DNA of 34,857 nt, from NCBI GenBank assembly GCA_033763355.1, contig JANRKT010000081.1, positions 1 to 34,857 of the forward strand. The letters run 5' to 3'. A model generated the notes under the pieces. It did not search any database. It worked only from the letters and a program-made list of their open reading frames with translations, and was not told the origin of the DNA. The DNA comes from Chitinophagaceae bacterium (GTDB taxonomy: Bacteria; Bacteroidota; Bacteroidia; Chitinophagales; Chitinophagaceae). Both the position numbers and the translations under genes were made by a program. This document shows positions 9,726 to 23,592 of the stretch, piece by piece; position 1 is the first letter of the stretch, and each line of letters begins with the position of its first letter.

Positions 9726-10112
9726 TCAATACTGTCCCGTACTCAGCATTACAAGTGTGCAGGCTTCAACAGGCTTGATGTTGTTTTTTTTTGCCAGTTG
9801 GTACAGCTCTGTATTTTCAGCTCCGGGGTTAAAGATGATGCGGCGGGGTTTAAGTGAAAGAATATAATCATAATATTCCTGCTGGCGCAGGGGGTTAAGG
9901 TAAACAGTAATGGTATCAATGCCTTTCCAGTCTTTCTTTCCGGTTTCTATTTCCACACCTGCCACAGTGTTTTGTTTTTTACCGATTGCAACTACCTCAT
10001 GCCCTTTGCTTTTTAACCTGTTTAAAGCAAGATAACTGTAGCGGGAGGGGTTTGCTGATGCACCGAGGATAAGGGTTTTGTTTTTTGGCTCGCTCATAAT
10101 CAAATCTAACAC
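9726..10112 (-). CDS. CoA-binding domain protein (YccU/CoA_binding_2-like)
   Basis: 128 aa: ...KTLILGASANPSRYSYLALNRLKSKGHEVVAIG...TITVYLNP... The Rossmann-like pattern is typical of small CoA-binding proteins. Confidence 0.6.
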   Translation of the reverse strand: MLDLIMSEPKNKTLILGASANPSRYSYLALNRLKSKGHEVVAIGKKQNTVAGVEIETGKKDWKGIDTITVYLNPLRQQEYYDYILSLKPRRIIFNPGAENTELYQLAKKNNIKPVEACTLVMLSTGQY

Positions 10113-10133
10113 ATAAAGAGAGTCTAAATGAGG

Positions 10134-10640
10134 TTATTTAAAGAGCTTCATCATGGTTCCGAGAAACCAGCTTTCATCTGCCTTTACAAGTATATCAAGT
10201 GCTTTATCTGCCTGTTCACCAAATTTTTTTATCCCTGTAACAGTATCGGTAAATGTTTTGATCTCTTTGTCTTTTTTATCTCCTTCCACCTGGCTAAGCT
10301 GTCCCAATAGTTTCAGCATGGGGTCCAGTTCCCTTTTCTTTCTTTCCCGTACAATCTGTCTTGCCACTTTCCAGATGTCTTTTTCTGCGGTAAAAAATTC
10401 TTTTCTTTCACCGGGCAGTATCACCCTGTCAACAAGGGCCCAGTCAATCAGTTCACGGATGTTCATATTGGCATTGCCGCGGCTGATGTTGAGTTGTTCC
10501 ATAATGTCATCAGCGCTCAATGGGTCAGGGCTGATGAGCAGCAGGGCATGTATCTGTGCCATGGTGCGGTTGATGCCCCAATGGGTTCCGAATGCGCCCC
10601 ATGAAGCGATGAATTGTAATTTGGCTTCGTTGAGTTTCAT
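10134..10640 (-). CDS. GbsR/MarR-type winged-helix transcriptional regulator
   Basis: 168 aa. ...FGTHWGINRTMAQIHALLLISPDPLSADDIMEQLNISRGNANMNIRELIDWALV... is an HTH of the GbsR-like family common in Bacteroidota. Confidence 0.55.
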   Translation of the reverse strand: MKLNEAKLQFIASWGAFGTHWGINRTMAQIHALLLISPDPLSADDIMEQLNISRGNANMNIRELIDWALVDRVILPGERKEFFTAEKDIWKVARQIVRERKKRELDPMLKLLGQLSQVEGDKKDKEIKTFTDTVTGIKKFGEQADKALDILVKADESWFLGTMMKLFK

Positions 10641-10724
10641 GCTTCAAAATTACAATTCAATTTCGAATTTTCAAAACTTTTTGAAAATTGAATTAGTTTT
10701 GAGGCAATAAGAATGTGGCAAAAA

Positions 10725-12161
10725 TCAGAATTCCGGGCAATCCCTGTTTCTTTTTTTCAGGTCAAATGGCTTTATGCTGATGGCCATATAATACCCGCCC
10801 CTGTTAAAATCGTTCCTGCTGCTGAGGCTGCCAAAATCATGGATGCCGGCAAGTATGGGGCCGAGCCTGATGGCAGCGCCAACCATAGCCTGCCCATCAA
10901 TATTAACCATCACGGGAATATACAATCCGGCAAAAGAAGTTTCCCAGCGGGGATTGATTAAGATGTGGGCAATTTCCGAAACATGCTTAGTGGTTGTCCA
11001 ACTGTTGCCTGTAAGCGGTACAACAATTTGCGTACCGAGGTAAAGGTTATTTGAAAAACTTTTATCCGCAGTAACAATAAATTTTGCAGGCAGGGATAGT
11101 GCAAATTTTCCGGTTTGACGTGCCAGGTTGTTAACTACAGTCGTAAGCGAGTCTGTAAAATCAAGCAGGGAAAAATCTGATATGGTAGTGTAGGGAAACT
11201 TATTATCAAGAACAGTTCCTGTTATACCGGGCCGCATATTACTTGCAATGCTGCTGGCTACACCGGTTTGATAAGAAAGCCGTCCAATGTCGGTTATTGA
11301 AGCGCCTATCCTGAAATCGTACTGCGACTTGTCTTCGGTTACATAATAACCGCTTGTTCTTTTTGTTTTGTAACGTACATATTCAATGCCCAGGTCAATG
11401 CCCGGCGTGGGACCTGTACCGGATAATAATTCACTGATCACTTTACTGCGTGGAGACTGGTCATCAAAGCGCTCAATATTCCTCGAAATATGATATTCTG
11501 CAGTTACCTGTGTTAAAAAATCTTCAGGCTGCGTAACATCAGTTGAAGGAACGATGATAAAGTTTCCGATATCTGCATTAAAGCCAAAAGAACCCCTCAT
11601 CAGCTTAAGTGTGGCACCTGCAATCCATGCATCGCTTTCGGATTCGGCAACCTTTCTTCCGTAAGTAAAATATCCTTCCACCCAGTTGTTGGTTACCATC
11701 CTGCCTTCAAGCGGGTTATTGGTTTTATTCGCGGCCAGGAACTGTGCTGTATTGAGGTTGCGGGAATAAAACAACGCTGATGTATTCAACTGGCCATACA
11801 GCCGGATATTGATACCCGCCGCGATGTAACCGTTATTTTTCAGCTGTAGTACAGCATTCAGTATGCTTACTTTACTATGGCCGCGGAAAAACCTTTCATA
11901 CTGGCCTTCCTTTACTTTAATGTTATCAAGATTAAGGTTTAAGAACCCGGTTGGTATTTGCAGAAAATTATTCTTCTGAAGAAAAATATTGAAACCTGCA
12001 GCAGTAACATCCCATCGTTGCTGGTATGCAGCAAAACTTGCAGGGTTCTGGTGCACAGATAATGCCCCTGCATAAGGTGAGCCGGACAAGGCAGTGTAAT
12101 GCTGCGCTTTTGATGAAACAAAAAGAACGGTAACGGATAATATGGTTATAAATCTTTTCAG
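10725..12161 (-). CDS. Putative outer-membrane / secreted protein (possibly a FadL/PorV-like beta-barrel), with a non-canonical start
   Basis: The track ORF (TTG at 12089) is open in frame for 24 more codons upstream, encoding (L)KRFITILSVTVLFVSSKAQ, a classic signal peptide. This stretch has no ATG, GTG or TTG; the only candidate is CTG at 12159-12161, 15 nt after the stop of the upstream oxidoreductase gene. The protein ends in ...ISIKPF...F, an aromatic C-terminus. Confidence 0.45.
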   Translation of the reverse strand: MKRFITILSVTVLFVSSKAQHYTALSGSPYAGALSVHQNPASFAAYQQRWDVTAAGFNIFLQKNNFLQIPTGFLNLNLDNIKVKEGQYERFFRGHSKVSILNAVLQLKNNGYIAAGINIRLYGQLNTSALFYSRNLNTAQFLAANKTNNPLEGRMVTNNWVEGYFTYGRKVAESESDAWIAGATLKLMRGSFGFNADIGNFIIVPSTDVTQPEDFLTQVTAEYHISRNIERFDDQSPRSKVISELLSGTGPTPGIDLGIEYVRYKTKRTSGYYVTEDKSQYDFRIGASITDIGRLSYQTGVASSIASNMRPGITGTVLDNKFPYTTISDFSLLDFTDSLTTVVNNLARQTGKFALSLPAKFIVTADKSFSNNLYLGTQIVVPLTGNSWTTTKHVSEIAHILINPRWETSFAGLYIPVMVNIDGQAMVGAAIRLGPILAGIHDFGSLSSRNDFNRGGYYMAISIKPFDLKKRNRDCPEF

Positions 12162-12175
12162 TGGCTTAAAGTTTT

Positions 12176-13315
12176 TTAATAAGCGGCCCCATGTGTTTTG
12201 CGTATCAGTTTATTAATTAACGATGGAAAAGGCTTCATCGTGCTGATGAACAGGTTAGTTAAGGATGGTTTCCCAAAAAAATACTGGATGATGCGGCCGG
12301 TTTTCATCCTTGCTGCAAAAGCTGCATTCCATTGCAGTATATATTGTTCTTCCATTTCCTCCCTTGATAGTTGCCCTTCAAGGAATTGCAGTATTTGAAA
12401 AAAAGCAATTTTGGCTGCATGCAGCGCCATGCTCATCCCGTTGCCGCAGAGCGGGGTTATCATTCCGGCTGCATCCCCGGCCATCAGGATGTGGTTTTCA
12501 ATCAAAGATTTTTTTTCAAAGCTTATTTGCGCAATCGTAACGGGTTCAGGCAGCAGAAATTTTGCAGTGCTGAATATTTTTTTGAGGTGGGGGTTTTTGC
12601 ACAGTATCCTCCTTTCCATTTCAGGTATTAAGTTGCCGCAACGCCGCAGGTTTTCAGCAACTGTAAGATAGCATAAACAATACTTATTGTCTTCCACCTT
12701 TGATATGCCGCAATAACCATTGTCAAAATTATGCAATGCAATAGTGTCCGCGGGAAAATCGCATGCTATATGGTATTTAACGCCTATATAATTATTGAGT
12801 TTATTGGGCTTGTGCAGTACAAAACTCCTTTTCCATTGCACATCAAGATTGCTCTTTTTGCCAAAACTGCCGCAGCAGGCAATGACTTTATAAACGCCGG
12901 TTGCAGTTTCAACTGAAAAAAAGCCATCATGGTAAACAACGTCATTCACTTTGGTTTCTTCAAATAGCTCAACTCCTTTTTGTCTTGCTATTTTGGCCAT
13001 CAGGCTGTCTAAAAAATAACGGCTGATGCCGAAGCCGCCAAAGGGAAGGGATTGCTCAATCATTTTACCTCCCGGTGAAGACACAAGCAGCTTACTGATG
13101 TGGGGCAATTGCATGTCACTTAAGGGCACACCTAATTCTTCAAGAAAATTCCATGATTCAAAACTGATGTATTCACCACAAACGCGGTGAAAGGGGTATT
13201 TTTCCTTTTCAAATAAAATCACATCATAACCCGCATCGGCCAGTTGTATGGCTGTTGCAAGGCCTGCCAGGCCCCCGCCAATGATTGCCGCATGATATGT
13301 TTTTTCAGTTTGCAT
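12176..13315 (-). CDS. FAD-dependent oxidoreductase (geranylgeranyl-reductase-like or flavin monooxygenase family)
   Basis: N-terminal dinucleotide fold AAIIGGGLAGLATAIQLADAG, then RVCGEYIS and GDAAGMITPLCGNGM. It overlaps the methyltransferase gene by 11 nt. Confidence 0.75.
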   Translation of the reverse strand: MQTEKTYHAAIIGGGLAGLATAIQLADAGYDVILFEKEKYPFHRVCGEYISFESWNFLEELGVPLSDMQLPHISKLLVSSPGGKMIEQSLPFGGFGISRYFLDSLMAKIARQKGVELFEETKVNDVVYHDGFFSVETATGVYKVIACCGSFGKKSNLDVQWKRSFVLHKPNKLNNYIGVKYHIACDFPADTIALHNFDNGYCGISKVEDNKYCLCYLTVAENLRRCGNLIPEMERRILCKNPHLKKIFSTAKFLLPEPVTIAQISFEKKSLIENHILMAGDAAGMITPLCGNGMSMALHAAKIAFFQILQFLEGQLSREEMEEQYILQWNAAFAARMKTGRIIQYFFGKPSLTNLFISTMKPFPSLINKLIRKTHGAAY

Positions 13316-14048
13316 GGTTTACCACCAGCAGCCACCGGAAAGCCCATTGCCACTGCAGGCTGTATTTACCAATGGCAGTATGATGTAAAATATCAACCCA
13401 CTCATTTTTTGTTAACCCCCTGAGCACTGACAGCGGTGCATCATTTTTTACAAGATAAGACCTTGAAAAAACCGAGGTTAGTATTTTAATTGAATAATAG
13501 GCAACCGGGTTCCGCTGCAGATCATTAATAAAAAAACCGGCTGCAGAATTCTCCCTCATCCAGTTTATCATCTTTTCTATGTCTTTTTCATTAAAGTGAT
13601 GACAGAACAGCGAGGAAAAAATAATATCAGGTTTTTTTTCAAACACCACTTTTTCATAATCAGAGCAAACCCAGTTTATATTTTTTAAACCTGAACAATT
13701 TTCGCCTGCATAATTTATACATTCTTCTTTAATATCAATTCCGGTAAAATTGCAAACTATATTTTTTTTTGCGAGCCACCTGTCAATGGCTTTCAGGTTA
13801 TCCCCGCCACCGCAGCCTATTTCGCAAATAGTAAAAGAGGTTTCCTGTTGTGATAATAATGCACTGTTGCTGTTCAATAATTTCTTTATTCCGTTAATGG
13901 TAATGTTATGCCCGCCGAGCCACCTGTTGATGACCTCCAGCTCCTTCATGTTCTGTTTAATGTCTTCAAAAGGGATATTGTTTTTATCCAGCAGTTCTTT
14001 CCTGTATGACCTTTTTGAAAAGTTCATAACGCTGAAATTAAGAAACAT
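13305..14048 (-). CDS. Class I SAM-dependent methyltransferase
   Basis: Motif I ICEIGCGGGDN and motif II-like VCNFTGIDI. 247 aa. Confidence 0.75.
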   Translation of the reverse strand: MFLNFSVMNFSKRSYRKELLDKNNIPFEDIKQNMKELEVINRWLGGHNITINGIKKLLNSNSALLSQQETSFTICEIGCGGGDNLKAIDRWLAKKNIVCNFTGIDIKEECINYAGENCSGLKNINWVCSDYEKVVFEKKPDIIFSSLFCHHFNEKDIEKMINWMRENSAAGFFINDLQRNPVAYYSIKILTSVFSRSYLVKNDAPLSVLRGLTKNEWVDILHHTAIGKYSLQWQWAFRWLLVVNHAN

Positions 14049-14078
14049 TCTTTCAAGGGATGATGGACACGAATATAT

Positions 14079-15182
14079 TCAGAAAGAAGCCGTAAAGGTT
14101 TCCATGGTAAGACCAGGGCCAAATGCCGCAGCAAAAACTGCTTCTCCCCGGTGGGTTTCCCTGGAATGGGCAACTATTTTTGACATGATTTTTTTAAGTA
14201 CAAAAAGGATAGTGGGGGATGACATGTTGCCGTAATCTTTCAGCACGGCATAGCTTTCATGAAGCTGGCTGTTTTTCATCCCGAGGCTTTTACAAATGGA
14301 TTCGAGGATGCGTTTGCCGCCGGGATGTATGCACCAGTGCGAAATATCAGCTGCATTTTTTTTACTGTGTGCCAATGCCCTTTTCACAAGCGGTTCAAAA
14401 TCTTCTTCAATCAGGTCGGGCACATATCCGCTCAGCGTCATTAAAAAACCAGAAGAAGACAATTCCCATGCCATGTCCCTCTTTCCTTTTGTTATCACCT
14501 CCGAATAAAAGCTTTCTATCTGAAGACCGTTGCGGCTGCATTCATCTCCGGTAACACACATTGCAGCAGCGCCATCTGAAAATAATAAACCGGATGCAAT
14601 ATTGTCAACAGTTGCTTCACGCTGAAAATGCAGTGTACACAATTCCGTGCATACAATCATCACTTTAGAGGCTGTATCCGCTTTACAAATCGCATCAGCC
14701 ATTTTTAATGCATGTATAGCTGCATAACAGCCCATAAAGTTAACTGAAGTGCGGTAAATGTTTTTGGGTAAATCCATCATCTCCATTACCTGTAAATCAA
14801 GGCCCGGCGCACTCATCCCGGTGCAGCTCACTGTAATGAGGTGCGTAATATCATGGTCGTGAATAAATCCATCCATACAGTTCCTGATGGCATCTACCGA
14901 AAGTTGCGCCGCATATTTGTTGTACCATATCATTCTTTGTTCAAGGGCGGGAAATGGTTCAAGGTTTTCGCTGTGCGGGTAAAACTTCCAGTCAGGCACT
15001 TCACGGCTATAATCAGGAACTACTGAATAACGTGTGTGTATGCCGCTCTGGTTGTAAAGAAAACGAAGCTTGCGTTTATCGGCTTCATTCATGGCATATA
15101 CCTTTTGCATGAAATGAAGAATGTCTTCCTGCCGGTGACGGTAAGCTGGTATTGCCGTGCCTATTGAAATAATTTTACTCAA
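14079..15182 (-). CDS. Type III polyketide synthase (chalcone/stilbene synthase family, alkylresorcinol/alkylpyrone synthase-like)
   Basis: 367 aa. Active-site Cys context VNFMGCYAAIHAL, C-terminal AAAFGPGLTME (the GFGPG loop), and overall thiolase-fold KAS-III-like layout. The start overlaps the UbiA gene end by 8 nt. Confidence 0.85.
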   Translation of the reverse strand: MSKIISIGTAIPAYRHRQEDILHFMQKVYAMNEADKRKLRFLYNQSGIHTRYSVVPDYSREVPDWKFYPHSENLEPFPALEQRMIWYNKYAAQLSVDAIRNCMDGFIHDHDITHLITVSCTGMSAPGLDLQVMEMMDLPKNIYRTSVNFMGCYAAIHALKMADAICKADTASKVMIVCTELCTLHFQREATVDNIASGLLFSDGAAAMCVTGDECSRNGLQIESFYSEVITKGKRDMAWELSSSGFLMTLSGYVPDLIEEDFEPLVKRALAHSKKNAADISHWCIHPGGKRILESICKSLGMKNSQLHESYAVLKDYGNMSSPTILFVLKKIMSKIVAHSRETHRGEAVFAAAFGPGLTMETFTASF

Positions 15183-16038
15183 AAGCCCTCCCTGTAATTA
15201 AAACCATAAAACCAGTATTGGTACAAACAGATGCTATGATGTTCATGCGCATGGTATTGGAAAAATTGGCCTGCTTCTCATCTTTCCACACCCGTGCAGA
15301 CCATATAAAGAAATATACGGGGATTGGCGACATACAGGTTGCCAAAAGCAAAAACTTTAATTGCTGCGACTGACTGAAGAAATAATAAAACAGTAACAAC
15401 ATGGCAACTGTATAAACCAAAGCACAAAAAATAAATGTGCCCCTGTAACCCAACATATAGCTTAGCGACCTCACTTGATCTCTCCTGTCTGCTTCATGCT
15501 GATAAATCTGTGTTAAAGGGTAAAACCCGCCGATAAGTAAACTGCTTATGATGACAGGTAAACCAGGAACATCAATTGGCTTACCCGCACTGCTGCCGTG
15601 ATAAACCAGCCAGTAAGTTACTGCGCCCTGGAAAATGATTACAGTCAGGTAACCGACAAAAGGATATTTTTTTAAACGGATATTACGATTGCTATAGGCC
15701 CTTGATACGAGGATGTATGCCAATATGCCGGCAGAAAAATAAATACTTACGGGTAGTGAAAGCAAAACAGCAGCAATATCCATTGCTATGGTAACATAGA
15801 ATAACTGTTTTGTTGGCTGCATAGGGCTTTTTATTCCGCCAATGCTTTCTTCATCCCTGTCTATATAAGAATTGTAGCCATTGCTGGCGGGATAAACCAA
15901 AAGGTGGAGAATTAAAAAGACAAGTATGGCATCAGGCCAGTCAATCACAGGAACCCCGCTGAGTGCAAACAGGTAAACAGGCAATAAAAAAAAAGAGAAA
16001 TGAAAACGGAGCAACTGTATGGTAGAGGCTTTAAGCAC
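15175..16038 (-). CDS. UbiA-family aromatic prenyltransferase (integral membrane)
   Basis: 287 aa and very hydrophobic with about 8 predicted TM segments. It has an Asp-rich motif ASNGYNSYIDRDEES and a second one YQHEADRRDQ. GTG start; the first in-frame stop is 14 codons upstream. Confidence 0.6.
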   Translation of the reverse strand: MLKASTIQLLRFHFSFFLLPVYLFALSGVPVIDWPDAILVFLILHLLVYPASNGYNSYIDRDEESIGGIKSPMQPTKQLFYVTIAMDIAAVLLSLPVSIYFSAGILAYILVSRAYSNRNIRLKKYPFVGYLTVIIFQGAVTYWLVYHGSSAGKPIDVPGLPVIISSLLIGGFYPLTQIYQHEADRRDQVRSLSYMLGYRGTFIFCALVYTVAMLLLFYYFFSQSQQLKFLLLATCMSPIPVYFFIWSARVWKDEKQANFSNTMRMNIIASVCTNTGFMVLITGRAFE

Positions 16039-16179
16039 AGCGGTAAGATAAGGATTTTTGACAGGCCCGGGTTGCTTTGTTCAGTCGGTTAATCAATAAA
16101 CTGAATTCAGCTCCATATCTTGCAGGTTTGCTGATACAGCTTATATTTACGTCAATTGGTAACGAAGCAACCCCTGCTG

Positions 16180-17850
16180 ATGAAATCATTAAATCAATGG
16201 CAATACACAACGCTTATCGCAATAGCGGCTGCAGTGTTGTTTTTTCCTTTTCTCGGAGCAGTTCATTTGTTTGACTGGGATGAGATCAACTTTGCCGAGT
16301 GTGCACGGGAAATGATACTGATGGATGATTACACCCGTGTTTATGTTGACTTTAAACCTTTCTGGGAAAAACCGCCGATGTTTTTCTGGATGCAGAGCAC
16401 GGCGATGAAATGGTTTGGTATTACGGAGTTTGCCGCAAGGTTCCCCAATGCGGTATGCGGAATTGTGACACTGATAGTTGTTTTTTTATGCGGCAGTAAA
16501 ATTTATGACAAAAAATTCGGCCTGTTATGGGCAATGGCTTATGGCGGATCACTTTTCCCCAACATGTATTTCAAATCCGGCATTATTGACCCCTGGTTTA
16601 ATCTTTTCATTTTTCTTTCGTTATATTTTTTTATTCTATATCACTGGAAACGCAATGGCTTTGACAAACCGGGCCTGCAAAAAAAACCTGTTGTTTATGC
16701 AGTATGGTCTGGTGTTTTCATGGGACTTGCTATGCTGACCAAAGGCCAGGTGGCGCTGATGATTTTTTTACTGGCGCTGGGTGCGTATTTTATTTACAAC
16801 CGTTTCAGGTTTTATTTTGGATGGGGCCATGTGGTATTGTTTTTATTGGTTACTGTATTGGTTACCGCCACATGGTATGGATATGAAACCGCCAAAAACG
16901 GTCCATGGTTCATCAATGAATTTTTCAAATACCAGTACCGCCTGTTTACCACACATGATGCGGGACAGAAAGGGTTCTTCGGCTATCATTATGTGGTTAT
17001 TCTTCTTGGCTGTTTCCCTGCTTCTGTTTTTGCCATACCTTCTTTTTTCAGGAATACTTACAGCGGCAGGTTTGATAAGGATTTTAAAGTATGGATGCTG
17101 ATCCTTTTCTGGGTAGTTACCATTCTTTTTACCATTGTACAGTCACGTATCATCCATTATTCTTCCATGGCATGGTTCCCGGTTACATTTCTTGCAGCTT
17201 ATACTTTTTATAAATGGCAGTTAAAGCAAATGAACCATAAAAAGTATGCGGGTGTTATTGCAGCAATTGTCGGGGGTATCATATCGCTTGCTTTGCTTGC
17301 CATTGCCATTTTTGCTTTTAACATACGAAAACTGATACCTTATGTGAAAGATAAGTTTGCACAGGCCAACATGGAAGCTGATGTGCACTGGGGCGGATGG
17401 GAAAGTGCTGCCGGGCTGCTGCTTGTTCTTACAATTGTATGGGGCTTGCTGAACCTGAGGAAACACAATTATTATAAAACAGCAGCGATATTTTTTGGGG
17501 GCACAGCAATTGTTATTTTTCTTGCTTCTGTTATTATTGTTCCTAAAGTAGAAAGGTATTCGCAGGGCGCTGCCATTGATTTTTTTAAAGAGAGAAGGGG
17601 TGAAGACTGCTATGTTCATTTGCTGGGGTACAAGAGCTATGCCCAGCTTTTTTACACGCAAAAACCAAAGCCGGCTAACCCGGATTCTTACAGCCAGGAG
17701 TGGCTGCTTAACGGAAATATTGACAAGCCCGTTTATTTTGTTACCAAGGTTGACCGTTACCAGAACTTTCAGCAGTACACTCAGCTAAAAGAGCTGTACA
17801 GGAAAAACGGGTTTATTTTCCTCAAAAGAGAAGTTCCTCCAGGGGAATAA
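16180..17850 (+). CDS. Glycosyltransferase family 39/83 (ArnT / PMT_2-like polyprenyl-phosphate-sugar dependent transferase)
   Basis: Polytopic membrane protein. N-terminal FDWDEINFAECAREM resembles the DE..YAE..REM catalytic-loop motif of ArnT/PMT enzymes. The start was moved to the ATG at 16180 (track start is TTG at 16156). Confidence 0.65.
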   Translation: MKSLNQWQYTTLIAIAAAVLFFPFLGAVHLFDWDEINFAECAREMILMDDYTRVYVDFKPFWEKPPMFFWMQSTAMKWFGITEFAARFPNAVCGIVTLIVVFLCGSKIYDKKFGLLWAMAYGGSLFPNMYFKSGIIDPWFNLFIFLSLYFFILYHWKRNGFDKPGLQKKPVVYAVWSGVFMGLAMLTKGQVALMIFLLALGAYFIYNRFRFYFGWGHVVLFLLVTVLVTATWYGYETAKNGPWFINEFFKYQYRLFTTHDAGQKGFFGYHYVVILLGCFPASVFAIPSFFRNTYSGRFDKDFKVWMLILFWVVTILFTIVQSRIIHYSSMAWFPVTFLAAYTFYKWQLKQMNHKKYAGVIAAIVGGIISLALLAIAIFAFNIRKLIPYVKDKFAQANMEADVHWGGWESAAGLLLVLTIVWGLLNLRKHNYYKTAAIFFGGTAIVIFLASVIIVPKVERYSQGAAIDFFKERRGEDCYVHLLGYKSYAQLFYTQKPKPANPDSYSQEWLLNGNIDKPVYFVTKVDRYQNFQQYTQLKELYRKNGFIFLKREVPPGE

Positions 17851-21498: not shown

Positions 21499-22005
21499 AT
21501 GAAAAGAATTACCATGACCCTTGTGGCTGCTTTTTTATTTATAGCAGCATTTGCCCAGAACGATAAAATGCATAAACACAACGGGGAGAAATCAGAAGTA
21601 AAAATCATTAAAGTAGGGGAGTGGACCATCAGCTACTCTTACCCGGGAGAAACTGCCGAACAAACCATCGGCAAATATGCCGTTGCAAAAATTGAATACG
21701 CCAGCGGCAGAACAGAAGATGTAACTGAAAAAATTACAGTAGCAGGCGAGGACGACTGGGAGAAAGTTGTGATTATTGAAGACAAAGGCGCAGCAATTGG
21801 TTTGAAAAAAATGGATGAGATAAGAGGCAAAACATCCGGCTGGATAGGTGTTCATACTGCAGGCAGCGCCGATAAAAAATCACTGAAAAAACTGAAGATG
21901 GCCGCTGCTGCAATGGGCGCACCGTTTATTTTAATGACATCAGATAAAGACAACCAGTTTACCAACCAGAGCATTAAAAAAGGGATTGCTTATTCCTATA
22001 AATAA
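21499..22005 (+). CDS. Hypothetical secreted protein
   Basis: The internal ATG gives MKRITMTLVAAFLFIAAFAQ, a signal peptide. The remainder has no recognisable motifs. Confidence 0.45.
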   Translation: MKRITMTLVAAFLFIAAFAQNDKMHKHNGEKSEVKIIKVGEWTISYSYPGETAEQTIGKYAVAKIEYASGRTEDVTEKITVAGEDDWEKVVIIEDKGAAIGLKKMDEIRGKTSGWIGVHTAGSADKKSLKKLKMAAAAMGAPFILMTSDKDNQFTNQSIKKGIAYSYK

Positions 22006-22015
22006 CTTGAGTTAA

Positions 22016-22053
22016 AAAGAATACGGTAGTTTCAAAAAACTACCGTATTCTTT
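22016..22053. terminator. Bidirectional hairpin between convergent genes: perfect 16-bp stem aagaatacggtagttt/aaactaccgtattctt with a 4-nt loop
   Basis: The palindrome was read directly. A T-run (ctttgtt) follows on the + strand and an A-rich stretch precedes it. Confidence 0.6.
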
Positions 22054-22068
22054 GTTGAATAAAGTAAA

Positions 22069-23592
22069 TCATTTCACCTCTTCGGCTTCCGTATCCACGG
22101 CAGTACCTCCTTTTTTCTTACCGAGGTAATCGGGCAAATCCATACCGGCCATATCAAAAATATCTTTTAAAGGCGGCACGGCTTTATACAAACCACTTAC
22201 AAAATTGGCAGTTGAATTTTTATCCCCGCCATTCTGCCCGCCTTCCCATACCGTTACTTTATCAATCTTAATATTTTTAATCGCTTCTGTCTGCATCTTT
22301 ACCAGTTCAGGTAATTTATCGGCAATAAGCAACAGTACCGCGTCTTTGGGGCTGTTGCCTGCGGATTTTACAATCCTGTCCAAACCTTCAGCCTGCTTGG
22401 TGAGTATTTCATACATACCCCTTGCTTCCGCTTCTAATTTGGCAAATATGGCATCGGCTTCACCCTTTGCTTTTTCACGCAGTTGCTCCGCTTGTGCCTG
22501 TGCTTCTATAATCAGCTTTTGTTTCTGTATATCGGCAGCTACCACAATGGTTGCATTCTGTGTGGCACGGTCCCTTTCTGCACGGGCCTCTTCCGCTTTC
22601 TTTTCCGCCAGATAAGCTTCTTCAAGTGCTTTGGCCGATTGTACTTTTTCTGCAGCAATCGCTTTTTTCAACGCTTCAGCTTCCCTTTCCCTTCTTTGCG
22701 AATCGGAATTGGCAATCTGGATCTTCGACTGGTTTTCTCCCTGTACAGCAAGGGCATTGGCTTCAGCCGTTTTAATACGGGTGTCCCTTTCTGCTTCAGC
22801 CTTACCGATATTTTCATCTTTTTTGGCACCCGCTATCTGCACCTCTTTATCTTTTACAGTTACCGCTACCTGTGTATCACGGTCTCGTACTGTTTCTGCC
22901 ACTTTAATATCCCTTTCTTTTTCTGCGGTGGTTTTACCAATGTCGCCTGTGCGTTCCTGTTCGGCCACTCTTATTTTCGCTTCGTTTATGGCTTTGGCGG
23001 CCGCTTCTTTACCCAATGCTTCAATATAACCGCTCTCATCTTTAATATCGGTTACGTTTACGTTAATCATCTTTAAACCGATCTTGTTCAGTTCAGCTTC
23101 CACATTGGATGCGATGTTGGCAAGGAATTTATCACGGTTGTTGTTGATCTCTTCAATATCCATCATCGCTACCACCAGGCGCATCTGACCAAGAATGATA
23201 TCCTTGGCAAGGTCATGTATCTGCGGCCTTTGCAAACCCAGCAAACGTTCTGCTGCATTCTGCATCACTGCGGGTTCGGTGGAAATGCCAACAGTAAAAC
23301 GGGACGGTACATCCACCCGGATGTTTTGTTTGCTCAGCGCACTGGTAAGGTTTACTTCAATAGAAATAGGCGTAAGGTCAAGGAATGAATAGTCCTGTAT
23401 AACGGGCCAGATAAATGCAGCGCCGCCGTGGATACATTTTGCCGTACGTGAGCCGTCAGGTCCTTTGCCCACTTTACCATACACAACAAGGATGCGGTCA
23501 GACGGGCAGCGTTTGTAACGCCTGAACATAGACAGGATCATGATGAGCAGGAACGCCGCTGCCGCTACAATTACAATAAGGATAAAATCCAT
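22069..23592 (-). CDS. Flotillin / SPFH (band 7) domain protein, YqiK-like
   Basis: N-terminal TM, then an SPFH region, then a long Ala/Glu/Lys-rich coiled coil (...EAEALKKAIAAEKVQSAKALEEAYLAEKKAEEARAE...) typical of flotillins. Confidence 0.8.
   Translation of the reverse strand: MDFILIVIVAAAAFLLIMILSMFRRYKRCPSDRILVVYGKVGKGPDGSRTAKCIHGGAAFIWPVIQDYSFLDLTPISIEVNLTSALSKQNIRVDVPSRFTVGISTEPAVMQNAAERLLGLQRPQIHDLAKDIILGQMRLVVAMMDIEEINNNRDKFLANIASNVEAELNKIGLKMINVNVTDIKDESGYIEALGKEAAAKAINEAKIRVAEQERTGDIGKTTAEKERDIKVAETVRDRDTQVAVTVKDKEVQIAGAKKDENIGKAEAERDTRIKTAEANALAVQGENQSKIQIANSDSQRREREAEALKKAIAAEKVQSAKALEEAYLAEKKAEEARAERDRATQNATIVVAADIQKQKLIIEAQAQAEQLREKAKGEADAIFAKLEAEARGMYEILTKQAEGLDRIVKSAGNSPKDAVLLLIADKLPELVKMQTEAIKNIKIDKVTVWEGGQNGGDKNSTANFVSGLYKAVPPLKDIFDMAGMDLPDYLGKKKGGTAVDTEAEEVK

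Follow-up and report, generated by a model that had tools for sequence, protein, structure and literature searches.

A conserved operon of Chitinophagaceae that joins a UbiA-family protein to a type III polyketide synthase is a candidate srs/agq-type phenolic-lipid pathway

Introduction

In Actinoplanes missouriensis, the agqABCD cluster is described in passages of two papers as making alkylresorcinols through a type III polyketide synthase (PKS), which are hydroxylated, methylated and O-prenylated by a membrane prenyltransferase (PMC10896814, PMC4044012). The products named in those passages, with reference to Awakawa 2011, are alkyl-O-dihydrogeranyl-methoxyhydroquinones. In a related type of pathway, the srsABC operon of Streptomyces griseus and the pkqABC operon of Mycobacterium smegmatis yield alkylquinones by means of a methyltransferase (MT) and a hydroxylase, and the third gene of each encodes the hydroxylase or oxidoreductase by which the methylated resorcinol becomes a quinone (PMC9927152). 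Here we analyse an operon found in a stretch of 34,857 nucleotides from a Chitinophagaceae bacterium (assembly GCA_033763355.1, contig JANRKT010000081.1), which as a whole we call the window. The operon encodes a UbiA-superfamily membrane protein, a type III PKS, a class I S-adenosylmethionine (SAM)-dependent MT and a flavin adenine dinucleotide (FAD)-dependent oxidoreductase, followed in the window by an outer-membrane protein (OMP). On balance, we favour the reading that this is an srs/agq-type phenolic-lipid operon, the Bacteroidota counterpart of the actinomycete pathways, which would make a prenyl-bearing phenolic lipid of the membrane.

Compared by description, agqABCD resembles this locus in combining a type III PKS, a ring hydroxylase, an MT and a membrane prenyltransferase in one small cluster. 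The same four enzyme classes stand in one co-directional cluster in the window and in 80 related loci. Awakawa et al. (2011, ChemBioChem 12:439) are said to have given the roles of AgqA-D gene by gene, AgqD reportedly being UbiA-like. An earlier reading of the window, made from the sequence only, held that no characterised product was known for this architecture. That statement has to be withdrawn, because agqABCD has the same four enzyme classes and a characterised product. The two systems differ in phylum, Actinomycetota there and Bacteroidota here. They also differ in that the UbiA gene comes first here and is translationally coupled to the PKS gene (fused to it in Dyadobacter), in that this UbiA protein is a member of a small divergent subfamily whose Asp motifs are modified, and in that a gene for an outer-membrane barrel is added in some lineages.

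The likeness to srsABC and pkqABC, again by description, lies in the co-directional and tightly packed order of PKS, MT and flavoprotein and in a resorcinol-type Trp in the PKS, which has been reported for PkqA and ArsB (PMC9927152). Those operons are without a UbiA gene and their alkylquinones are non-prenylated. The hidABC genes of picocyanobacteria, which direct the synthesis of hierridins, also combine a type III PKS, an MT and an oxidoreductase to form methylated alkylresorcinols, and the window PKS has Met at the position of chalcone synthase (CHS) Phe265, as reported for the HidC clade (PMC8086630). The resemblance to srsABC and hid that the earlier reading had noted is therefore confirmed, although the gene order in hid is different and a prenyltransferase is exceptional in cyanobacteria, one hid-like cluster from Raphidiopsis encoding one (PMC8086630), whereas it is a constant part of the 80 loci examined. 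In the assembly of ubiquinone, plastoquinone and tocopherol, a membrane enzyme of the UbiA fold, such as UbiA, MenA or homogentisate phytyltransferase, is likewise combined with a ring MT and a flavin hydroxylase-like enzyme acting on a phenolic head, but the head group there comes from chorismate or homogentisate and would here be derived from a polyketide.

Papers based on antiSMASH routinely report agq-like type III PKS clusters in actinomycetes, and in Jiangella and Micromonospora srs-like clusters have been described that contain a UbiA gene in addition. The kind of pathway is thus already known and detectable by standard tools. What is specific to this locus is the phylum, the constant overlap with UbiA first, the gene fusion, the divergent UbiA subfamily and the optional outer-membrane gene.

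Results

A four-gene core is conserved in Chitinophagaceae

The open reading frame (ORF) list of the window contains five co-directional minus-strand ORFs that lie where the sequence-only reading had placed them. With the regulator gene that comes after them, the features are:

15175-16038, minus strand: UbiA-superfamily membrane protein, presumed aromatic prenyltransferase, first gene of the operon (287 amino acids, GTG start)
14079-15182, minus strand: type III PKS, predicted long-chain alkylresorcinol or alkylresorcylic-acid synthase (367 amino acids, TTG start)
13305-14048, minus strand: class I SAM-dependent MT in the SrsB position (247 amino acids as called)
12176-13315, minus strand: FAD-dependent oxidoreductase in the SrsC position, with the fold of monooxygenases, halogenases and geranylgeranyl reductases (GGR) (379 amino acids)
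10725-12161, minus strand: DUF5723 outer-membrane beta-barrel protein (OMP), a lineage-specific accessory (CTG start, signal peptide; mechanically called ORF 10725-12089)
10134-10640, minus strand: GbsR/MarR-type winged-helix regulator, a frequent downstream neighbour (MarR_2 at 31 bits in Pfam)

The tight packing is exactly as had been described, with an overlap of 8 nucleotides (nt) between the UbiA and PKS genes (15175-15182) and of 11 nt between the MT and flavoprotein genes (13305-13315). Pfam, with scores over its curated cut-offs, supports the proposed gene identities, namely UbiA family, type III PKS, class I SAM MT, FAD protein and secreted beta-barrel. The quoted motifs NFMGCYAA and RVCGEYI are also present, but the loop given as GFGPG is in fact AFGPG. 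None of the proteins falls in a curated equivalog of NCBIfam. The window PKS is 100% identical to an NCBI entry named 'type III polyketide synthase [Chitinophagaceae bacterium]', showing that the single genes are already annotated in public records.

A scan for the PKS clade with one genome per species returned at least 596 relatives, and we examined the best 80 loci (80 genome records). The UbiA gene is directly upstream of the PKS gene in 80 of 80, in the same order and on the same strand, with a median spacing of -8 nt and the 8-nt overlap as the commonest value. The MT and flavoprotein genes come next wherever the contig continues; one or the other is missing only at contig ends, and the MT gene is present in 78 loci. 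The carriers among these best 80 loci comprise at least 15 named genera labelled Chitinophagaceae or relatives, including Niastella, Longitalea, Cnuella, Paraflavitalea, Pinibacter, Pseudoflavitalea, Ginsengibacter, Lacibacter, Puia, Agriterribacter, Terrimonas, Hanamia and Flavisolibacter, plus one metagenome-assembled genome labelled Lewinellaceae. Cultured species with the operon include Niastella populi, Cnuella takakiae, Pinibacter soli, Ginsengibacter hankyongi, Longitalea luteola and Pseudoflavitalea rhizosphaerae. Genes upstream of UbiA differ among genomes, whereas UbiA never parts from the PKS. Judged by eye, the upstream ORFs in nine other genomes include a pyruvate-dehydrogenase E2, a flotillin-like protein, PriA, a DEAD-box helicase and an ABC permease. 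The recurrence of the four-gene order in 80 loci argues that the arrangement is not due to chance. Thus, UbiA-PKS-MT-FAD is a conserved operon core in soil and freshwater Chitinophagaceae, and the conservation expected for a five-gene neighbourhood is found for these four genes, which are syntenic in the 80 loci.

Two departures from the usual layout were observed. In four genomes (L008:9190-9615, L014:9182-9616, L015:4213-4641 and L022:9183-9611) the PKS and MT genes are separated by a small gene in the opposite orientation, whose product has about 142 amino acids and a signal peptide. In one lineage (L094:911-8464) three inverted genes, among them those for a beta-carbonic anhydrase and a HAEPLYID-family member, separate UbiA-PKS-MT from FAD-OMP. 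A promoter and terminator scan of positions 10000-16400 in the window was uninformative, with 18 promoter-like and 8 terminator-like matches against 15.1 and 6.6 in shuffled sequences; the consensus used is not that of Bacteroidota.

The UbiA-family protein is divergent and coupled to the PKS

As anticipated, the first protein matches PF01040 over the full domain (69.1 bits against a cut-off of 34.2, profile positions 3-249 of 250), and it has at least seven hydrophobic segments. The NCBIfam models for UbiA, MenA, HPT and ChlG reach only 20-35 bits, far under their cut-offs. The Asp-rich motifs of the UbiA superfamily, NDxxDxxxD and DxxxD, bind Mg2+ and diphosphate. Alignment of 77 orthologues with the window sequence showed the conserved segments YPxSNGYNSYxDxD (N56, D60, D62) and YPxTQxYQ..D184xxD187, giving acidic motifs with the spacing N56xxxD60xD62 and D184xxD187. 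Two residues of the superfamily motifs, the third Asp of the first and the first Asp of the second, are not conserved in this subfamily. Because the motifs have a non-canonical spacing, catalysis by the protein is plausible and we claim no more for it. A scan of 1.84 billion representative proteins recovered 721 relatives at E <= 1e-3 and 219 at E <= 1e-30. As judged from these searches, the protein belongs to a small, sharply bounded and divergent subfamily, and searching with one sequence does not link it to the main body of the UbiA superfamily.

The strongest functional link between UbiA and the PKS is a gene fusion in Dyadobacter. The protein WP_149244224.1 of Dyadobacter sp. 32 (P0254, L087:6001-7959) is an in-frame UbiA::PKS fusion of 652 amino acids, with the UbiA domain at residues 19-271 and the Chal_sti_synt domains at 294-648. 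A length of 652 amino acids is common to all six members of its 90%-identity cluster, and the MT and FAD genes come after the fusion gene. In this locus a type II NADH dehydrogenase is also encoded about 2 kb upstream on the opposite strand, with a histidine-kinase gene in between.

The association recurs in a second arrangement. A UbiA protein 36% identical to that of the window, from a freshwater metagenome (L091:181-5858), is encoded in a cluster with the order PKS, a 169-aa protein, MT and UbiA. This cluster adjoins genes for a microbial rhodopsin and an RPE65-family carotenoid oxygenase, and its contig stops before the position where a flavoprotein gene could show.

We considered whether UbiA is a mere conserved neighbour with a prenyl-lipid function of its own, which would leave a three-gene, srsABC-like alkylquinone pathway. 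The atypical Asp-rich motifs would be compatible with this, PKS-MT-FAD trios exist without UbiA elsewhere, and some members of the UbiA subfamily have no type III PKS gene called within 5-6 kb. Among the members of the subfamily, P0316, P0328, P0341 and P0350 are about 500 amino acids long owing to a C-terminal extension of about 210 amino acids that has no Pfam match, and the two extended-UbiA loci inspected (L088:6001-7524 and L089:6001-7476) have no type III PKS gene nearby. In the second of these the next gene overlaps that of the extended UbiA by 4 nt and encodes a YceI-family protein, a family that binds polyisoprenoids. Such stand-alone and extended members show that the subfamily is not exclusively PKS-linked. 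A mere neighbour is harder to reconcile with an 8-nt overlap as the commonest spacing in 80 loci, with an in-frame fusion conserved in Dyadobacter, with a 36%-identical UbiA again clustered with PKS and MT in a rearranged order, and with a pair that never separates while the genes upstream vary. We regard it as very unlikely that UbiA stands outside the pathway.

The PKS is predicted to form resorcinols

The PKS matches Chal_sti_synt_N at 89.4 bits and Chal_sti_synt_C at 85.3 bits (cut-off 27), whereas the FabH domains ACP_syn_III_C and ACP_syn_III score 39 and 33 bits. The NCBIfam fabH models reach 47-65 bits, far under their cut-offs, and DpgA reaches 160 bits against a cut-off of 425. Since its Chal_sti_synt domains outscore the FabH domains, the protein is a genuine type III PKS and not a FabH/KAS-III enzyme, as had been proposed. 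Its best solved relatives are Ectocarpus PKS1, Steely1 and PKS18.

For residue assignments we aligned the PKS with a sequence that we take to be that of alfalfa CHS2, and in which the canonical residue numbers are consistent internally. In this alignment the catalytic C152, H286 and N319 correspond to CHS2 C164, H303 and N336, M248 falls at the position of CHS F265, and W239 lies opposite CHS G256. In a HMMER alignment W239 lies opposite Leu266 of PKS18 from M. tuberculosis. The Cys-His-Asn triad is invariant in 22 close homologues and in five distant cluster-linked PKSs. The same is true of W239, the distant proteins that keep it being the PKSs of alphaproteobacterial clusters, the Dyadobacter fusion and the freshwater metagenome cluster. 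ArsB Trp281, ArsC Gly284 and PKS18 Leu266 occupy one position that decides between resorcinol and pyrone (PMC7064976), and the swaps W281G in ArsB and G284W in ArsC reverse the cyclisation specificity (PMC6274091). The enzyme is thus a genuine type III PKS of the long-chain phenolic-lipid kind, and from the invariant Trp at the ArsB-281 position we predict that it forms resorcinols.

The same evidence bears on the possibility that the PKS makes alkylpyrones, or mixed triketide and tetraketide pyrones, with a pyrone as the head group on which the tailoring enzymes would act. Pyrones are formed in vitro by many bacterial long-chain type III PKSs, resorcinol synthases are often shifted towards pyrones under such conditions (PMC7064976), and PKS18, which is among the closest solved relatives, is a pyrone synthase. 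The invariant Trp, at a position where exchange reverses the cyclisation of ArsB and ArsC, argues for resorcinols instead, as does the pairing of an MT with a flavoprotein, which is associated with the conversion of resorcinols to quinones (PMC9927152). A pyrone product is quite unlikely in our estimation.

The methyltransferase is of a general class I type

The MT contains Methyltransf_25, Methyltransf_11 and Methyltransf_31 domains in Pfam, and its best NCBIfam match, PRK06202 at 118 bits, is under the cut-off of that model. Comparison with solved structures returned generic class I methyltransferases only. The protein is 19-27% identical to the products of MT genes in or beside type III PKS clusters on three alphaproteobacterial plasmids. 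The true start is probably the second Met at 14027, which gives 240 amino acids and is the start called in a close relative.

The flavoprotein is probably a ring hydroxylase

The segment RVCGEYI had been taken as a sign that the flavoprotein is of the geranylgeranyl-reductase type, so that head-group formation would be followed by prenylation, reduction of the prenyl chain and O-methylation, with no ring hydroxylation. The reduced geranyl group of the agq product is in line with such a step. The best curated match of the protein is GG-red-SF (TIGR02032), and some sources label homologues 'menaquinone-9 beta-reductase'. The TIGR02032 match, however, has 90 bits and is well under the cut-off of 158.8, and its best stretch, residues 10-140, is the N-terminal FAD-binding part. 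In Pfam, too, only the N-terminal dinucleotide-binding part of several FAD families was matched. The full-length matches in the NCBIfam search are the flavin monooxygenases QhpG, LodB and GoxB.

Among 72 aligned sequences the signatures of the flavoprotein are GGGLAG, an invariant H-x-V-C-G-E-Y and GDAAG..PLCGNGM. The place of the DG motif of hydroxylases and GGR is occupied by FGK(R)SN, and that of GGR YxWxFP and halogenase WxWxIP by GYCGIS, in which G, Y, C and G are invariant. We also observed that C46 and C202 are invariant and that C290 is present in 71 of the 72 sequences; they lie within the VCGEY, GYCGIS and PLCGNGM motifs, respectively, and only C46 is kept in a Novosphingobium homologue.

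Homologues of the flavoprotein occur in several other contexts. On plasmids of Falsirhodobacter (L085) and Mesorhizobium (L086) it is encoded by the third gene of a PKS-MT-FAD trio, a cassette of the srsABC/pkqABC type with the same gene order, in which all three proteins are homologous to those of the window (identities of 35-37% for the PKS, 19-23% for the MT and 23-24% for the FAD protein). In Novosphingobium the gene comes after genes for an acyl carrier protein (ACP), a ketosynthase (KS) and a type III PKS, and the homologue that we aligned keeps HxxCGE as HHKICGEF. No UbiA homologue was found in the fetched Falsirhodobacter, Mesorhizobium and Novosphingobium loci, and a comparison of the UbiA protein with plasmids gave ChlG as its sole match. 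On plasmid pHsw1 of Hymenobacter swuensis (L082:2051-7065), a 44%-identical homologue is encoded third, after an isonitrile synthase family protein and a TauD/TfdA dioxygenase, in an aromatic-tailoring context with no annotated prenyltransferase nearby. This looks like an isonitrile cluster that uses the same flavoprotein clade.

These results show that the flavoprotein is independent of UbiA. Since HxxCGE is kept beside a PKS where there is no UbiA homologue in the fetched locus, the motif belongs to a PKS-associated flavoprotein clade and not to prenyl reduction, and RVCGEYI loses its value as a sign of a geranylgeranyl reductase. With a TIGR02032 score below cut-off, YxWxFP absent, flavin monooxygenases as the full-length matches, homologues in PKS clusters free of UbiA and in the Hymenobacter isonitrile context, and ChlG alone answering to UbiA on plasmids, we consider reduction of a prenyl chain unlikely. 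The fold ranking would also allow a phenol halogenase, and thus a halogenated alkylresorcinol (compare hierridin C). This is highly improbable because WxWxIP is missing, its place being taken by GYCGIS, and because position 75, the candidate for the halogenase Lys as placed by eye, is variable (R in 26, K in 19, N in 12 and Q in 7 of the 72 sequences, with others in the remainder). The UbiA-free PKS-flavoprotein clusters, together with the precedent of srsABC, favour a ring hydroxylase, and we consider this function likely.

An outer-membrane protein gene is added in some lineages

The gene callers place the start of the OMP 24 codons too late, so that the signal peptide is lost. Upstream of 12089 the frame contains no ATG, GTG or TTG and runs without a stop as far as a CTG at 12161-12159. 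Counted from the final base of the FAD stop codon, this CTG begins 15 nt further on, and translation from it yields a typical signal peptide, LKRFITILSVTVLFVSSKAQ. A close relative with a 96% identical OMP shares both the CTG (L081, about 9929-9931) and the frame. Seven of eight aligned homologues begin with an equivalent signal peptide, which has AQ or a similar pair at its end; the eighth is the gene call of that close relative itself, which begins at a downstream TTG. The conservation of the CTG and the frame and the signal peptides of the homologues support the reconstructed start, 15 nt after the oxidoreductase stop, which the sequence-only reading had proposed. The OMP thus appears to start with a rare CTG codon.

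The only Pfam match of the OMP is PF18990 (DUF5723) at 74 bits, and no model of the FadL family matches. A low-confidence structural model (predicted local distance difference test, pLDDT, of 63) has FadL, TbuX, TodX and PorV-like or BAM-associated proteins as best Foldseek matches, with template-modelling (TM) scores of about 0.4. Because of these values a FadL-like fold, which had been suggested earlier, is a weak lead.

In 16 of 66 evaluable loci the gene immediately follows that for the FAD protein, and the mechanically called FAD and OMP ORFs overlap by 17 nt in 8 of 17 loci. In the lineage with the split operon (L094) the FAD and DUF5723 genes remain adjacent, 12 nt apart. A distant DUF5723 protein from a flavobacterium is not near any PKS. 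Only 10 OMP homologues were found at E <= 1e-5, and the protein evolves fast. The DUF5723 gene trails the operon in a minority of loci and is a lineage-specific add-on to it.

Flanking genes

The GbsR-type regulator, which scores 46.9 bits against the CudC/GbsR-family model and is under its cut-off, recurs downstream of the FAD or OMP gene on the same strand in 23 of 64 evaluable loci, with 72-83% identity. A link between this regulator and the operon is possible. The divergent gene upstream of the operon encodes a PMT_2 protein (Pfam). None of the 80 loci yielded a homologue of this GT39/ArnT-like gene within 8 kb, and it is adjacent only in a near-identical relative. Of the two flanking genes that had been connected with the locus, the regulator is therefore retained as a recurrent neighbour, whereas the GT39/ArnT-like gene is rejected as a part of the system because it is not conserved beside the operon.

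Elsewhere in the window, positions 22001-23000 have the strongest compositional skew (GC skew -0.196, AT skew -0.303). This segment lies inside a minus-strand ORF of 507 amino acids (22069-23592), to which a 507-aa gene with a Band_7 domain at the edge of the fetched locus of the close relative may correspond.

Discussion

The general idea of a prenylated phenolic lipid, as put forward in the sequence-only reading, is a reasonable one. We infer every chemical step, the order of the steps, the prenyl donor and the physiological role from sequence comparison. The type III PKS would take a fatty-acyl thioester from primary metabolism and add three malonyl units, and ring closure by aldol condensation would give an alkylresorcinol or alkylresorcylic acid. 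The MT may then O-methylate the ring, as SrsB does, and the flavoprotein may hydroxylate it, as SrsC and PkqC do, to give an alkyl-methoxy-hydroquinone that could be oxidised to the quinone. Finally, the UbiA-family protein would attach an isoprenoid chain to the head group, either O-linked as in agq or C-linked. The expected product is a doubly lipidated, redox-active phenolic lipid in the cytoplasmic membrane. The translational coupling of UbiA and PKS and the fusion in Dyadobacter suggest that the PKS works at the membrane surface, where the polyketide might be made and handed directly to the transferase. In some lineages expression of the DUF5723 barrel would go along with that of the flavoprotein, and the barrel may carry the lipid to the outer membrane or through it.

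Several observations weigh against this proposal. The acidic motifs of UbiA depart from the superfamily spacing, some relatives of this protein have no type III PKS gene called within 5-6 kb, the best curated match of the flavoprotein, although under its cut-off, is the GGR superfamily, and some homologues of the flavoprotein carry a menaquinone-reductase label. In addition, no acyl-activating enzyme, ACP or prenyl-diphosphate synthase was seen among the upstream ORFs of nine loci, as judged by eye, and no experimental work on any Bacteroidota member was found in the literature searched.

The presence of the operon in otherwise varying and apparently housekeeping surroundings points to a membrane or respiratory function and not to a sporadic antibiotic. 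Such a role would be like that of the polyketide quinones of mycobacteria and Streptomyces, and the wide conservation in one family hints at a physiological membrane lipid or an alternative quinone. To our knowledge, Chitinophagaceae and some other Bacteroidota are described as having menaquinone only. In its most specific form, the proposal would be that these bacteria have a second membrane quinol with a type III PKS head group and both alkyl and prenyl tails, made at the membrane where the PKS is fused to a divergent UbiA protein or docks on it, acting as an alternative electron carrier or membrane antioxidant and not as an antibiotic, and carried to the outer membrane by the DUF5723 barrel in some lineages. 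We offer this tentatively, and taken as a whole it is unlikely.

From this locus a small divergent UbiA subfamily can be defined, as can a flavoprotein clade with HxxCGE as its mark, and cultured carriers of the operon exist. The UbiA::PKS fusion would show directly that physical coupling of a soluble type III PKS to a membrane prenyltransferase is possible, and this coupling may be useful for engineering meroterpenoid or cannabinoid-like pathways. If the reading of the locus as an srs/agq-type operon is true, a large bacterial family that is ecologically abundant and lives in soil and fresh water would use a compact operon to make a prenylated phenolic lipid that has not yet been described.

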